From a bacterium (lineage in GTDB: Bacteria > Patescibacteriota > UBA1384 > XYA2-FULL-43-10 > JAKAMI01): 64,000 nucleotides of DNA. The DNA lies in NCBI GenBank assembly GCA_021812945.1, contig JAKAMI010000002.1:1047-65046 (forward strand), written 5' to 3'. Shown here piece after piece: positions 21,668 through 27,663 of this stretch; the stretch's first letter is position 1; every line of letters starts with the position of its first letter. A program made the translations under genes and the position numbers. The notes under the pieces were generated by a model. It was not told where the DNA came from, searched no databases, and saw only the letters and a program-made list of their open reading frames with translations.

Positions 21668-22672
21668 ATGGAAAATCATCCGAAGGTTTCGATAATTATC
21701 CCAGCTAGGGCAATCAACGACTACATCTTAGAGTCGGTGCCGAAGATTTTGGAACTAGACTGGGATGACTACGAGATTTTAATAATTACCGATAAAAAAG
21801 ACACTCAGCACACTTGGCCCAAGACTCATTTACTTGTTTCGGGGCCAGTCGGTCCGGCCGAGAAGCGCGATCTTGGGGCGAAGAAGGCTAGCGGCGAGAT
21901 TTTAGCCTTTTTGGATGACGACGCTTACCCCGAGTCCAACTGGCTCAAGGAGTCGATCCACTGTTTTCTGGAGGATGAAAAGGTCGCAGCCGTCGGCGGC
22001 CCGGCCATAACCCCCGGTGACGACGGGATTTTACAAAAAGTCTCCGGCGCGGTTTTCGAGTCGTACCTCGGCGGCGGCCCTGCCCGCAACCGCTATATGT
22101 GCCTCGGCGACCATTGCCTGTGCGAAGACTGGCCGACCGTAAATTTACTAGTCCGCAAGGACGTTTTCGAGAAGATTGGCGGCTTCGATACCGCTTACTG
22201 GCCCGGTGAAGATACGAAATTATGTTTGGATATTTTAAACGCCGGCTATCTGATGAAATACGACCCCAAAGCTATCGTTTACCACCACCGCCGGAGCGAC
22301 CTCTACAAACATCTGAAACAAACCGGCAACTACGCTTTGCACCGCGGCCACTTTGCCAAGAAATATCCCAAGACTTCGCTCAAGCTGTTTTACTTTGTCC
22401 CCACTCTTTTTGACCTTTACCTTGCTGTCCTGCTGTCCAGCTGTTTAGCTGTCTGGCTCGGAGAAATACAGTTTGACAGCTGGACAGAATACAGTTTATT
22501 AATTCCAATCGCAATATATTCGGTCGGGCTAGTCATCGATGCTCTCATCATTAGTTGGCGGTGGAAGAACCCGCTAGTCGGCCTGCTGGCTACGCCGATG
22601 ATCCTTTTAACCCACCTCTGGTACGGTATTCGCTTCGTCCAAGGACTGGCGGTTACAAAATTAGCACGCTAA
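21668..22672 (+). CDS. Glycosyltransferase family 2 with C-terminal TM helices
   Basis: VSIIIPA, AFLDDDAYP, IGGFD..PGEDTKL. Confidence 0.88.
   Translation: MENHPKVSIIIPARAINDYILESVPKILELDWDDYEILIITDKKDTQHTWPKTHLLVSGPVGPAEKRDLGAKKASGEILAFLDDDAYPESNWLKESIHCFLEDEKVAAVGGPAITPGDDGILQKVSGAVFESYLGGGPARNRYMCLGDHCLCEDWPTVNLLVRKDVFEKIGGFDTAYWPGEDTKLCLDILNAGYLMKYDPKAIVYHHRRSDLYKHLKQTGNYALHRGHFAKKYPKTSLKLFYFVPTLFDLYLAVLLSSCLAVWLGEIQFDSWTEYSLLIPIAIYSVGLVIDALIISWRWKNPLVGLLATPMILLTHLWYGIRFVQGLAVTKLAR
22550..22672 (+). repeat. 123-bp direct repeat, copy 1 (3' end of the GT2 gene)
   Basis: Matches 27464-27586; the first ~63 bp are identical and the rest diverges mostly at synonymous sites. Confidence 0.92.
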
Positions 22673-22737
22673 AATCCTGAATCAATGACTCGAATCCGAT
22701 CTTACCCCTTTCGCTGATTTTTGATAAACTCATAAAT

Positions 22738-24276
22738 ATGAACAGCCCCGACCTAGCCCTAGATAACCACGACCGAGACCGTGAGAACCATCCGGATCTT
22801 GGTCGAATTATCGATCCTAAACACCTTACCCTTCTTGACGAGGTAGTTGATAACGGCCAACACAGATTGAGTGAACTATTGAAGCGACACGGGAAAATAG
22901 CCGAACCGCTTATGGAGCGTTTCGGGCAATTGCTCGAAAATGCCAGTCGACTCTCAGAATATCTGGACGACGTTTTGGGTCAAGCCGGTTACCAAAACGA
23001 TGCCGGAAGAATCCTGCAGAATATACTCCAACCGGCCGTAGCCTGGGCTGAGAACCAACGGTTTGAATATCCAGATGATAACCCCGACTATGATCCGCCA
23101 TTCCCCCTGCCTTCGGATCTGCACTTGTTCTACATCCACCCGATCGAATCTTTCTTGGGTCAAGCCGAACGTTCAATCGACGGTTTTGTCAAATATCAAT
23201 ACTATTTCGAGCGGTTCTGGCGAGAAACGGAGCCGTCGACGACGAAAAGCGACTTGATCACTCCGGAAAAAGTGGCCGCTGGCCAAGAGAAGATAATGCA
23301 GAGTTTAAATCTAAACGAGTACGAAAAAAGAACCGCCGATGCTTCTGTGACCCTGCATTATTTGCTACAAGGACTGCTGGAAACCTCCGATGCCGATATC
23401 TTGCGCCTCTTGCGTCACCAATCTCCTGCCCGAGAAAAACTGGTTTTGGACTTGGGTTGCGGTACCGGCCGGCTTGATATTGCTCTCGCCCTAACCGGTC
23501 GTTTTAAGATCAATGGGATAGACTTGTCCTCCGAAGTTCTGGAACAGGCCGGCCAGCGAGTCGCCAATATAGCCGGCCCTGCGGGGCAAGATCAAGTACT
23601 GGGCGATCTGGACACGGCTGTCGGTTCTCTCTGGGCAAGCCGGCAAAAAAGAATCGGCCGCCTCGACATAGACCGCCAGCGCTTAGAATTATCGGACAGG
23701 CTGAGCTTAAAAAAGGCTAGTTTTTTTGAACTGAACAGAGAGAAATACCAAGAGCTGTTTGGCAATCGACTTGCCGACGCTGTTACCATCACTTGGCACA
23801 CCTTCGGTTTTGCCGGTGACCGCTCGGGACAGCTTCAAGTCTTAGCAAATGCCATTGACAACCTGGAACAGGGCGGGAGGATTCTAATAGAAATGCCCGA
23901 CCGTGAATTGGGTGAGTACGGGCGGGTAGCAGAGAGCTATCATCGGCAATCGGGCGGCAAGACGCCGCTGGGAGTTGTGGTCGACCGACCGGCCGGCAAA
24001 GGCAGTGTTTCCAACCCCGACTCCGAAGGCGCTCCGCGCTACTTCCCGAGCAAGGCTGAGATGTTCTCGGTTCTAAAAGAAGCCGGTTTCGAAAAAGTCG
24101 GTTGTCAAAGCTACTATATTCGGATCCGCGACAACGGCAAAGAACGATTGATTAAAGAAATTCTGTACACAGCGCAAAAACCGCTGGCCGCCGGCGACTC
24201 GGAAAAAGAGGCAATACTAACCTATCGTCTAAGAAATCCCAACAGCTTTGATGCCCTGCCAAGCGAGCTCGAATAA
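22738..24276 (+). CDS. Class I SAM-dependent methyltransferase with a long N-terminal extension
   Basis: VLDLGCGTGR, GIDLS, TFGF, LEQGGRILIE, LKEAGF. Confidence 0.82.
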   Translation: MNSPDLALDNHDRDRENHPDLGRIIDPKHLTLLDEVVDNGQHRLSELLKRHGKIAEPLMERFGQLLENASRLSEYLDDVLGQAGYQNDAGRILQNILQPAVAWAENQRFEYPDDNPDYDPPFPLPSDLHLFYIHPIESFLGQAERSIDGFVKYQYYFERFWRETEPSTTKSDLITPEKVAAGQEKIMQSLNLNEYEKRTADASVTLHYLLQGLLETSDADILRLLRHQSPAREKLVLDLGCGTGRLDIALALTGRFKINGIDLSSEVLEQAGQRVANIAGPAGQDQVLGDLDTAVGSLWASRQKRIGRLDIDRQRLELSDRLSLKKASFFELNREKYQELFGNRLADAVTITWHTFGFAGDRSGQLQVLANAIDNLEQGGRILIEMPDRELGEYGRVAESYHRQSGGKTPLGVVVDRPAGKGSVSNPDSEGAPRYFPSKAEMFSVLKEAGFEKVGCQSYYIRIRDNGKERLIKEILYTAQKPLAAGDSEKEAILTYRLRNPNSFDALPSELE

Positions 24277-25029
24277 ACCGGACATAGTCTTGGCTATCAG
24301 CTCGTTCTCGATAATCACGCCTATCAGGGCGTTATTTTTGTTATAGTTGGCAAAAGAAACCTTGTTGCCGTATATTTGCACTTCCAAAAGTGCCGGAAAA
24401 AGTTTTTGTTCGACGACCCTGGTCTCTCTTAGCTCCTCTTTGGTTCTTCCAATATATGAAGCGGTTTCCGGATCGGTTTTATCAGCGGAGACTATAACCC
24501 GGGCGGTAATTTTATTTTTAATCCTTAAAGGTGCGTAGCTTTTCCTCAGCCAACTGCTAACTGTTTCTTCGGCTTGTGTCAACCCAAGAAAAGACTTGAT
24601 CGGTTGCCCGGACCTCAAAGTATCCAAATAGAGATTTTTAATACCCTCTATCCCTTCAAAAACTCTTACTACCGGTTTCTCGGTGGTGTTTCTGTAAAGC
24701 TCGGAAAGTCCGGGAATGACCGAGTCGATCATCTTCTGGGCCTGGGAAAGCTCTCGTTCCCTGTTGTTCAAATAAACTTTTAGCTGGTACGGGTCGTTTG
24801 GCCGGAATTCGAGTTTCTTTTTTACGTCGGACTTTTGGACTAAGGACTTCTGGGCTAAGGACTGTAAAACATTGTAGAGATTGGTTCGCGAAAGCTTGGG
24901 GATCAGTTTCTGCATAGATAAAATGCTGACCTGTCCGTTCTTGATCAGAACTTCGTAAACCAAAGCCTCACTGTCGTTGAGACCGGTTCTGGCGAGTATT
25001 TCTTTATAATTGATGTCTTTTCTGTCCAT
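24229..25029 (-). CDS. TrmB-family transcriptional regulator
   Basis: GLNDSEALVYEVL, RTNLYNVLQSLAQKSLV (wHTH), KPVVRVFEGIEGIK, IYGNKV, FELAW. Confidence 0.88.
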   Translation of the reverse strand: MDRKDINYKEILARTGLNDSEALVYEVLIKNGQVSILSMQKLIPKLSRTNLYNVLQSLAQKSLVQKSDVKKKLEFRPNDPYQLKVYLNNRERELSQAQKMIDSVIPGLSELYRNTTEKPVVRVFEGIEGIKNLYLDTLRSGQPIKSFLGLTQAEETVSSWLRKSYAPLRIKNKITARVIVSADKTDPETASYIGRTKEELRETRVVEQKLFPALLEVQIYGNKVSFANYNKNNALIGVIIENELIAKTMSGLFELAWQGIKAVGIS

Positions 25030-25035
25030 ATCTCT

Positions 25036-25064
25036 ATTATAGATCAAGTAATATAATATGTCAA
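25036..25064 (-). promoter_or_regulatory. Consensus sigma70 promoter for a leaderless trmB mRNA
   Basis: Minus strand reads TTGACA-17 nt-TATAAT-6 nt-ATG. Confidence 0.8.
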
Positions 25065-25189: not shown

Positions 25190-25218
25190 TTGACAAATGC
25201 AAAATAATATGTTATACT
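25190..25218 (+). promoter_or_regulatory. Sigma70 promoter for the rightward structured transcript
   Basis: TTGACA (25190-95), 17 nt, TATACT (25213-18), with an extended -10 TG. Confidence 0.75.
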
Positions 25219-26044
25219 GCTTCCGTTACGATGGAAATCGGCCAAGGGCTTCAGGAAGCCGGGCAATAATCCAAAGTAGCACCTTAACAACCGAATATAC
25301 GCAGGTAGTAGCTGGTTTCACCGCCTCAAGCCCCACCAGGTCGGAGGCAAAACCGAAGCTAAAGCGCCGGAATTAAGTCGGCTTCCGCCCCCAGCGGGTG
25401 GACGCGTATTCGTAATTATCCGGTCTTTGGCAACCCGATCCTAGAGTCAGGAGCTTTAGAATCAATTGAGTGTAGTTTTATCCTTGCTTCAGGAGTGTAG
25501 TGATAAACCTATATATAACCATTAATCGAATGAGCCCAGGCATCACCCTCGAGGTGGGCCTTGACTCCTCGAGGGTGGGACAGGTTGTTCTCTACCGCAC
25601 TCAAAACGGCGTTTAAAAACGCCGCCTTTCCAGCGCTACTAATACATCATTAGAGGATCGGTTCGTGGTCTTCGGGCCATTGAACCCAAGATTCTCTATA
25701 GTCTCAATTCGCGACTCCCTTCGCTGCCCGTCATTCTGAGCAATCCCAACTGTCATTCTGAACGAAGTAAAGAATCTAGCGAAGCGAACAGCATTCTTTC
25801 CCATCTGGTCCTAAGCTGTCGGTGTCGGTGTACTGCCTACGCCAAGACTCAGGGGTGGAGAAGAAGAATTATTTTTTGTACAACCTTTGTCTCTTGTTTT
25901 TCACCCCGAGGGTGGGTTTTGACTCCCTCGGGGTGGGGCAAAAGACAAGGTTGTACAAAATACCCGCCGGCCTTCGCGCCAGGCGGGAAAATACCCTACC
26001 CCGGGTAAGTTCTCCATCTTGTCGGGAGCCGAAGGAGGCAGAAA

Positions 26045-26503
26045 ATGGAAGAAAAGATCAAAAAGGTCGTTTTTGTTCTGCTCGCCGCGATCAACGCGGC
26101 GATGGCGGCCTCGTTTGAGGCCGCCCGTCAAGCGCGCATTGAGGCGCGTCTTGACCGGCAGCGGCAGACTATCAAGAAGATGGCGATGGCCTCGCTCACG
26201 CCCACCGAGTGGGCGTTGGCCGGCCGCATCTCGGGTTACTTGGAGTGCCCTGAAGTAGCATTTCAGGGTTGGTGGCAGTCGCTGGCCCATAACTGGGCCT
26301 GCCGGACTGCCCTTGATTCCGAGGGGAACTTCCGCGACCCCTCGGAATCACAAGAAGTCGCGGATGCTCTTGCCTGGTTGGGGTTTCCTAGCCAGGCGGC
26401 GTATGCCACGTCGATGGAGGTCCTCTGGGCCATCCATCGCGCGATGGCGTATGTAAAAGCCGGGCACGAAGGCTGGATCGTGCCGTCGGGTGGTTGTGAA
26501 TAG
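26045..26503 (+). CDS. Hypothetical protein (152 aa)
   Basis: AAGGAGG Shine-Dalgarno before the ATG; Ala/Trp-rich, no recognised family. Confidence 0.6.
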   Translation: MEEKIKKVVFVLLAAINAAMAASFEAARQARIEARLDRQRQTIKKMAMASLTPTEWALAGRISGYLECPEVAFQGWWQSLAHNWACRTALDSEGNFRDPSESQEVADALAWLGFPSQAAYATSMEVLWAIHRAMAYVKAGHEGWIVPSGGCE

Positions 26504-26583
26504 CTAACCGGCCAAGGGACCATTCCGCGCCCTAAAGATTCCGATGAAAATCGGAACGTGTCCGCCTTTAGCGGATGCGGCGG

Positions 26584-26664
26584 CGTTATTCCGGTGCCTC
26601 GTTCGCCATGGCGGACAAGCAGCCCGAGTTCGACCGGAAGACGATAACTGAGATGGTGGCTGCT
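26584..26664 (+). ncRNA. Unrecognised structured RNA motif, copy A (stem plus pseudoknot)
   Basis: ttccggt/accggaa stem and gcagcc/ggctgc pseudoknot; homologous to 26968-27034 with compensatory changes. Confidence 0.55.
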
Positions 26665-26696
26665 AACTAGATTTGTGGCAGAAAGGAGGTGAAACG

Positions 26697-26927
26697 ATGA
26701 GTTCTTGGATCAGAATCTGTTCTGAATGTGGGGGGGAAGTTGTCGGGCAGGCGGGTTGCTACGCCTGCTCGACGGAGGCTACCGCCCGCAGGGGCGGCCA
26801 GCCAGAGCAGGGGCACCACCTCTGTTCTGTTTGGTCGGAGGCTCAAGCCTCCAGTGAAAAGTGGTATCCACTTTTCACGGAGCGTTCTGACAGGGCATGC
26901 GACTGTCCTGCCAGAAACCTCCGATAG
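26697..26927 (+). CDS. Small Cys-rich (zinc-ribbon-like) hypothetical protein, 76 aa
   Basis: AAAGGAGGTGA Shine-Dalgarno; motifs CSECGG, CYAC and CDC. Confidence 0.55.
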   Translation: MSSWIRICSECGGEVVGQAGCYACSTEATARRGGQPEQGHHLCSVWSEAQASSEKWYPLFTERSDRACDCPARNLR

Positions 26928-26967
26928 CCTCCGGAGTCTGCAGGCTCCGAGGTTGTTAATCCTGCAG

Positions 26968-27034
26968 CGTAAGTCCGGTGTGCTCCTGTAGCCCGAGATT
27001 CGACCGGAATACGAAAGCTTAGGTGGCGGCTACG
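26968..27034 (+). ncRNA. Unrecognised structured RNA motif, copy B
   Basis: cgta..tccggt/accgga..tacg stem and gtagcc/ggctac pseudoknot. Confidence 0.55.
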
Positions 27035-27112
27035 ATTTGCAATCATACCCGGCCCCGACGTCAGTGTCGGGGCCAAAAGAACAGTTGAGCCGAAATCCAC
27101 ACCAGGAAAGTA

Positions 27113-27176
27113 GGCTCACCTTCACCCGCTAAGCGGGTCTGATGAGTCTTTGAAAATTAAGACGAAAAGGTGAGTT
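27113..27176 (+). ncRNA. Hammerhead ribozyme, type III
   Basis: Core CTGATGA 27139-45 and GAAA 27164-67; stem I acccgc/gcgggt, stem II gtctt/aagac, stem III ctcacct/aggtgag; UUC triplet with cleavage predicted after 27123. Confidence 0.9.
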
Positions 27177-27263
27177 ATCGCCAACCTGCCTTTAGGTTGC
27201 ACTCCTGTCCCGACGCCCCGATTTGCGTCGGGGGTCGGGAGCCACCTGAGGGCAGATTAGCCT

Positions 27264-27303
27264 AAAAAATCCTCGCGTTATAACCGTACCGCGGGGATTT
27301 TTT
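27264..27303. terminator. Intrinsic terminator, probably bidirectional
   Basis: aaaaaatcctcgcg...cgcggggatttttt hairpin with A- and T-tails. Confidence 0.7.
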
Positions 27304-27463
27304 AGTTTGGAGACCAGACCTAATTTTAGTCTGTAGCGAAATATAGCTTGTTCTGTCATTCTGAACACAGTGAAGAATCTCTACCTGTAGAATAGATCCT
27401 TCGCAAGCTCAGGATGACAGAAATTAGCTTAGGATGACAAAATCAAACTTAAGGATGACAGAT

Positions 27464-27586
27464 ATTAGTTGGCGGTGGAAGAACCCGCTAGTCGGCCTGC
27501 TGGCTACGCCGATGATTTTCCTCACCCACCTCTGGTACGGTATTCGCTTTGTCCAAGGCTTAATTGTTTCTAAATTGGCCAGATAA
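27464..27586 (+). repeat. 123-bp direct repeat, copy 2 (orphan GT2 3' end)
   Basis: Translates ISWRWKNPLVGLLATPMIFLTHLWYGIRFVQGLIVSKLAR*, versus ...MILLTHLWYGIRFVQGLAVTKLAR* in copy 1. Confidence 0.92.
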
Positions 27587-27663
27587 AAGCTCTCTTAAAA
27601 CACAGAACCGCCGCCTAGACTGACGACGATTGCGGTTCTGGTTTTTTGTGCGACAGCGTGCGC

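Follow-up and report, generated by a model that had tools for sequence, protein, structure and literature searches.

The window, a 64,000-nt stretch of a Patescibacteria contig, contains a plus-strand operon in the order promoter, leader, ORF1, copy A of an RNA motif predicted to be pseudoknotted, ORF2, copy B, hairpin, hammerhead and terminator-like repeat. The predicted start of the operon transcript is a sigma-70-type promoter with an extended -10 (25190–25218, plus strand; 11/12 matches), divergent from a TrmB-family regulator gene on the minus strand (24229–25047; PF01978, E = 3.8e-8). ORF1 (26045–26503, plus strand; 152 aa) is led by a Shine-Dalgarno sequence and ORF2 (26697–26927, plus strand; 76 aa, Cys-rich) by a strong one. 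Both are orphans, with no relatives among 5.8 billion proteins, and their coding RNA is strongly folded (z = -5.2 and -7.5 for ORF1, -9.2 for ORF2). Beyond copy B, on the same strand, lie a GC-rich hairpin (27051–27074), identified by folding and repeat search as a class-wide palindromic repeat, a type III hammerhead ribozyme motif (27113–27176), and an inverted repeat resembling a terminator and ending in a T run (27262–27305), which the repeat search found and the terminator scan did not call.

A 5-kb segment here is bracketed by a duplicated glycosyltransferase 3' end, whose diverged second copy (86%; 27464–27588, plus strand; original 22550–22674) marks the far edge of this inserted stretch. 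No integrase was found near this segment, and a DGR template repeat was rejected as the source of the duplicated gene end, the mismatches not being adenine-specific. Host contigs C26 and C8 each carry a DGR-like reverse transcriptase locus, accompanied by Avd-like genes and repeats, and the reverse transcriptase on C8 is split over two frames. A hairpin repeat unrelated to the motif, with copies at 25544–25577 and 25902–25935, occurs at 18 places in the genome, and the short GC-rich palindrome at 27054–27071 of the window recurs in 31 of 162 genomes of the class, sometimes within tRNA-like sequences (L197, L216). The promoter and first part of the leader (25190–25660) are conserved beside the TrmB orthologues of relatives (L267–L273), where the cargo genes are completely different. 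Similar promoter-led orphan cassettes with other structured spacers occupy seven of eight regions beside TrmB orthologues, and neither the motif nor an Rfam hammerhead was found in the eight. The host operons are patchwork Patescibacteria operons.

Two copies of a predicted double-pseudoknot motif

Both copies are present where the earlier note had described them, as checked directly in the window sequence. The loci stood and the ends were corrected: the core of copy A runs from 26584 to 26643, with its 3' knot ending at 26663, and that of copy B from 26968 to 27013, with its knot ending at 27033. All of the listed pairings (outer stem, its extension, the inner CTC/GAG stem and the loop-tail pseudoknot) form in both copies, and the optional hairpin is found in A and is absent from B. 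Between the copies, a U.G pair in the outer-stem extension of A becomes A-U in B, and the loop-tail pseudoknot undergoes a C-G to U-A change. The homologues described below show that the motif extends further 5' than had been noted: each copy is immediately preceded by another predicted pseudoknot of the H type, giving full extents of 26515–26663 for A and 26932–27033 for B.

The 5' domain of copy A (26515–26583, plus strand) starts 11 nt past the ORF1 stop and is a predicted H-type pseudoknot in which S1 pairs 26515–26518 with 26530–26533, S2 pairs 26525–26528 with 26580–26583, and two hairpins occupy the pseudoknot loop. Its 3' domain (26584–26663, plus strand) comprises an interrupted S3/S4 stem, an invariant bulged G, a G-C pair, S5, the optional hairpin and a loop-tail pseudoknot (26619–26624 with 26658–26663). 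The 5' domain of copy B (26932–26967, plus strand), which starts 4 nt past the ORF2 stop, is likewise a predicted H-type pseudoknot (S1, 26932–26936 with 26945–26949; S2, 26938–26944 with 26961–26967), and its 3' domain (26968–27033, plus strand), without the optional hairpin, ends in a loop-tail pseudoknot of 26988–26993 with 27028–27033. Among 5000 random 21-mers drawn from these operons, 0.4% gave a loop-tail pairing as good as that of A, and 1.6% one as good as that of B. Folding that ignores pseudoknots did not make the copies unusually stable (z = -0.11 for A, +0.90 for B). The minimum-energy fold of the copy A core differs from the model and competes with it; the S3/S4 stems were seen in five of six cores.

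Homologues, covariation and rarity

The search for further copies, which the earlier note had proposed, brought four more to light in two other operon lineages (one Patescibacteria genome and three metagenome contig loci). Copy C lies in genome G028, from the same order as the host (L004, L059; L119 is the same sequence). Copies D (L126) and E (L134) came from the metagenome contig scan, and the more divergent copy D2 follows the next gene beyond D on contig L126, which is probably from Patescibacteria, since a flanking YraN-like protein is 60% identical to that of the host. The six copies represent three operon lineages, C and E being nearly identical. In the 912-kb host genome, a small MAG from an ultra-small bacterium, BLAST, pattern search and two covariance models found A and B only. 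Pattern scans yielded one true locus among the 51 matches listed for genome contigs, most of the others being nusG-like coding matches, and three among the 51 listed for metagenome contigs.

The motif is rare and was found in two genomes of the 162-genome class. Beyond the host and G028, no copy was found in genomes searched by BLAST (41), pattern (162, 401 and 301), covariance model R1 (151) or model R2 (40, 151 and 151). Four weak R1 matches were rejected on inspection, three other matches in the 401-genome pattern search were without the stem, and none of the weak R2 matches inspected (13/14, 13/13 and 6/6) had the S4 stem. Under default filters R1 misses D2, so D2-like variants may escape these searches. 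Four scans of viral contigs gave no true copy (0/1, 0, 0/25 and 0/3 matches), blastn against phages and plasmids gave no real match, and the ORF1 preceding C had no relatives in viral contigs. Nor did a copy appear at the hammerhead loci of relatives or in the eight regions beside TrmB orthologues, in the parts of these regions that were covered. The Rfam check set beforehand showed that no known family matches either copy: there was no match to any Rfam 15 family for A or B at E ≤ 10, or for C, D, D2 and E at E ≤ 0.5. Literature searches, with subscription papers, bioRxiv supplements and the COMPASS database outside their scope, found no published description of the motif, and the accessible parts of PMC5737381, PMC11109978 and three bioRxiv preprints held nothing on it.

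Across all six copies the 5' domain is a predicted H-type pseudoknot (S1, 3–5 bp; S2, 4–7 bp) with optional loop hairpins, and the end of S2 directly abuts the invariant CG of S3. The 3' domain runs through S3, a small internal loop, S4 (6–7 bp, the last three pairs invariant), the invariant bulged G and the G-C pair to the inner stem S5 and then a loop that may hold the optional hairpin; an A-rich linker of 9–14 nt follows, and then a 3' tail that pairs back with the apical loop. The whole motif measures about 100–150 nt and has about 20 invariant nucleotides. The 5' knot is present in 6/6 copies and the 3' knot in 4/6, the near-identical C and E having none locally. A 9/10 complement about 900–940 nt away in both was considered as a long-range partner for the missing knot, but C has a better one, preferred by the ensemble fold, and the pairing is unsupported.

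In a hand-registered table of 25 pairs in six copies, all 138 counted cells paired, 12 cells being left out of the count because C and E have no local partner for the 3' knot, and the registers being set by hand; 13 pairs changed on both sides and 11 were invariant. Covariation was seen in every helix except the short invariant inner stem, and S3 carries U.G wobbles on the coding strand in five of the six copies. When the 3' domains of five copies (all except D2) were aligned by MAFFT, 90.7% of cells paired, as against 21–44% in slid controls, and 3/20 pairs covaried. Covariation from so few sequences is supportive, short of statistical proof. The earlier suggestion of a new structured RNA class is thus supported by the lack of an Rfam match, the homologues elsewhere and the covariation in the hand alignment, and on these sequence grounds we consider it a genuine, rare and uncatalogued RNA motif with good structural support.

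In the fold that we infer, the 5' knot would tuck the 5' flank into the S2 loop, S2 would abut the long S3/S4/S5 stem and probably stack on it, and the 3' knot would tie the 3' tail to the apical loop through the A-rich linker. Conservation lies mostly in base pairs and in the A-rich linker, as expected for a scaffold.

Position after stop codons, hammerheads and the ribozyme question

The motif is a post-stop module. All six copies start 4–13 nt after a stop codon, behind five unrelated ORFs, and the earlier proposal of an element bracketing the Cys-rich ORF was therefore not borne out. The ORF before C and E is probably a real gene, as the differences between the two fall mostly at third codon positions (40, against 20 and 18). 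The placement also bears on whether the motif could act on the following gene as a riboswitch or by controlling its translation. About 20 nt separate the end of copy A from the strong Shine-Dalgarno sequence of ORF2, and pseudoknotted aptamers of such size are common, but B and D2 have no ORF downstream, the next ORF begins about 130 nt after D and about 500 nt after C, and the downstream genes have no common function; we regard this reading as highly improbable. Readthrough pseudoknots of the MuLV type follow the stop at a constant distance, and the frame stays open past it. A readthrough element was rejected here, given the spacer of 4–13 nt and the absence of a consistent frame: C reaches the next in-frame stop after 2 codons, B after 14 and A after 47.

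The operons that carry the motif are GC-rich and are folded along their whole length, coding sequence included. Sliding folding z-scores were mostly -2 to -7 across 25850–27500 of the window, in L126 and L119, and in a TrmB-linked operon of genome G020 (L190). Flanking genes lay near z = 0, and the scores of ORF1 and ORF2 were -5 to -9, as against about 0 for three housekeeping segments. This end-to-end folding suggests selection for RNA stability. Folding of such strength (z down to -9) resembles that of RNA-virus or viroid-like RNAs; the operons are chromosomal.

A loose post-stop knot descriptor, built from these same copies, fired at 6/6 of them and at 69/694 Shine-Dalgarno-led ORFs genome-wide. 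In relatives, the post-stop slot carries a hairpin and a type III hammerhead, or other unrelated folds. The slot thus takes many interchangeable 3'-end modules, and proximity to a hammerhead is therefore weak evidence of catalysis. After D2, in the place that the hammerhead has in the window, the minus strand of L126 (about 1160–1240) carries a separate structured RNA, a candidate ribozyme in which an outer stem of 7 bp encloses inner helices that cross, with no Rfam match at E ≤ 0.5. A hairpin common to the downstream sides of B and D2 is a weak sign of kinship, since it is the class-wide palindrome.

The hammerhead that had been reported next to the motif was confirmed as type III, with an RF00008 match at 27116–27173 (E = 4.5e-7; 41.5 bits, where the gathering score is 48.5), a corresponding fold and a core intact by inspection. 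Cleavage after 27123 is predicted from the hammerhead consensus. It lies about 80 nt downstream of copy B. No hammerhead was found in the 4 kb around D and D2 or anywhere in genome G028, which holds C, and only one of the three motif-bearing operon lineages showed one. In the order, 11 of 44 genomes carry a type III hammerhead. Nearly all of these score under the Rfam gathering threshold, and they usually follow a hairpin, at a short distance from a stop codon. Near-identical ones end one-gene cassettes (promoter, Shine-Dalgarno, unrelated orphan ORF, hairpin) in different families (L007, L008, L011, L012, L170–L188). The TrmB-divergent operon of G020 (L190, C6:28500–32800) has two hammerheads with the same stem II as that of the window, and a knot like the 5' domain of the motif after its first stop; its genes, judged by eye, presumably encode a Csx3-type ring nuclease and an AAA ATPase.

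Only about a dozen classes of self-cleaving ribozyme are known. Could the motif be a new one, its two coaxially stacked pseudoknots forming a ribozyme that cuts polycistronic RNA just after each gene and, together with type III hammerheads, divides folded Patescibacteria operon transcripts into single-gene RNAs? The compact double-pseudoknot fold with its invariant nucleotides would suit a ribozyme, as would the position of B just upstream of a hammerhead and the use of the same slot for hammerheads in relatives. In prophages, hammerheads occur in clusters on either side of genes (PMC3088659), and the neighbourhood of ribozyme-associated genes is where pistol, hatchet and twister-sister came to light (PMC10085705). 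Against it, our reading of the alignment leaves few invariant unpaired nucleotides for an active site, a hammerhead was found in a single motif-bearing lineage, a cut at B would be nearly redundant with that of the hammerhead, and RtcB, which could circularise the products, is absent from 5/5 genomes. The prior is also low: besides hammerheads, none of the tested ribozyme-adjacent HRIMA candidates cleaved, in the available text of PMC10085705. Self-cleavage is not supported beyond the proximity of the hammerhead, and we consider both a new self-cleaving class and the combined cutting scheme unlikely.

None of the known ribozyme classes considered fits the motif. The prophage hammerheads of Perreault et al. 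2011 (PMC3088659, accessible part) share with the motif a slot between short unrelated genes, and this operon has a type III hammerhead motif of its own, but a CUGAnGA core is missing from the double-pseudoknot motif, whose helices follow an order that no hammerhead permutation has. Hammerheads, non-circular permutations included (PMC10085705), have a CUGAnGA block adjacent to stems I and II, which was found in 0/6 copies, and a GAAA block between stems II and III; a CGAAA follows stem S3 in five copies (not in A), with no stem after it. HDV-like ribozymes have a nested double pseudoknot, P3, an L3 of 7–8 nt and P1.1. One can lay out the 3' domain of A-type copies as P1, followed by a variable J1/2 hairpin, P2 and a short putative P3, but it has no P1.1 and no P4, and the loop of that P3 would measure 2–3 nt instead of 7–8. 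An HDV-like assignment was rejected, as the P3-like pairing is absent in D2, the loop is 2–3 nt in the others, the L3 word occurs in one of six copies and outside the core, and no HDV-type Rfam family matched. The accessible text of PMC11662667 describes twister as P1/L1, P2, P4/L4 and two short pseudoknots; the motif has a different helix order, an L4-like word in C and E only, at the S2/S3 junction, and no Rfam match to twister. Pistol and twister-sister were also rejected, with the pistol linker word in 0/6 copies, the twister-sister loop word in 1/6, where it overlaps the tail of D, and no Rfam match.

RAGATH motifs in Rfam are ribozyme-associated candidates, and none matched the motif. 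HRIMA motifs, as far as the available parts of PMC10085705 describe them, are also structured, pseudoknotted RNAs of unassigned function beside ribozymes, but almost all are known from metatranscriptomes only, whereas the motif is in chromosomal DNA; its core words were absent from the one HRIMA supplementary file covered.

A possible non-catalytic end-cap

The reading that we favour, at a probability of roughly 40%, is that the motif is a non-catalytic end-cap at gene boundaries, likely blocking PNPase and/or RNase J in the manner of viral xrRNAs and standing outside those families. The long transcript would first be cut by the hammerhead or by RNase Y; the 3' knot would then halt PNPase on its way in from the 3' end, sparing the upstream gene, and the 5' knot would halt RNase J on its way in from the 5' end, sparing the downstream RNA, so that the message would be divided into separately stable gene units. 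We favour the end-cap because the knots would tie down both flanks, because each copy stands where it would protect a gene's 3' end, and because of the RNase set of the host: RNase J, RNase Y and PNPase are encoded and no RNB-family nuclease is present (3/3 genomes, host included). The last point is weak support, as these RNases are common in bacteria. Against the end-cap, a plain hairpin would suffice for 3' protection, which would leave the invariant stem pairs and bulged G unexplained, C and E have no local 3' knot, and there are only six copies.

We know of no natural bacterial pseudoknot that blocks nucleases in the way xrRNAs do. Viral xrRNAs rely on pseudoknots (PMC8374639), and one flavivirus xrRNA blocks bacterial RNase J1 in vitro (PMC5760640), according to the accessible parts of these papers. 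The motif shares several features with xrRNAs (those of the plant viruses Tombusviridae/Luteoviridae and the tandem flavivirus elements): an internal loop interrupts its stem-loop, a pseudoknot is conserved, the copies occur in tandem and they lie in untranslated gaps (PMC8374639, PMC5760640). At least one conserved pseudoknot is expected of an xrRNA, beside a ring around the 5' strand and resistance to 5'-3' exoribonucleases; the motif has its predicted 5' knot in every copy and its 3' knot in four. It differs in having no match to a viral Rfam family at E ≤ 10, an additional 5' H-type knot and a bacterial chromosomal location, and it is without the three-way junction core of the flavivirus xrRNA classes as given in the available text of PMC8374639. 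Membership in a described xrRNA class was rejected, there being no Rfam match and no flavivirus-type three-way junction core. Should the motif block nucleases and make no cut itself, bacteria would have in it a natural equivalent of the viral xrRNAs.

The main rivals of the end-cap are the new ribozyme considered above and a protein-recognition site. The latter would mark these highly folded RNAs for binding or processing by a host endonuclease, RNase Y for example, or for a protein that packages, exports or localises them. Invariant Watson-Crick pairs with a bulged G would be typical of a surface read by a protein, the operons are folded from end to end, and RNase Y is present, but the motif operons have no partner gene in common, their ORFs are unrelated orphans, and a general host signal would be expected to be more common (two genomes of the class have the motif). 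We hold a protein site to be doubtful, though slightly less so than a new ribozyme.

It is very unlikely that the motif acts only as DNA, as an attC-like cassette-exchange site or a selfish repeat with no functional RNA. A copy does sit after each ORF, C and E have the same flanks and unrelated second ORFs, a gene end is duplicated on the two sides of the segment, and palindromic repeats abound in the genome. Yet the pseudoknots covary, the U.G wobbles of S3 lie on the coding strand, the genome has two copies only, the swap between C and E is not at the motif, and the single tyrosine recombinase match of the genome is on another contig. Hammerhead cassettes showed no link with reverse transcriptases (8/11 genomes with and 23/33 without such cassettes), and the reverse transcriptases of the host look DGR-type. 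Retro-mobility was rejected in view of this and the lack of RtcB.

The motif points to an undescribed layer of RNA biology in Patescibacteria, in which operons of orphan genes are folded over the whole transcript and punctuated by interchangeable RNA modules. Rarity limits its general importance; it has six natural variants, and the hammerhead next to copy B would serve as a built-in positive control. The operons of L119 and L134 share their first and third genes and their RNA spacers, whereas their second ORFs are unrelated, so that one gene has been swapped within a structured operon. In G028 the L119 operon lies between rpmH and dnaA, as read from their translations.
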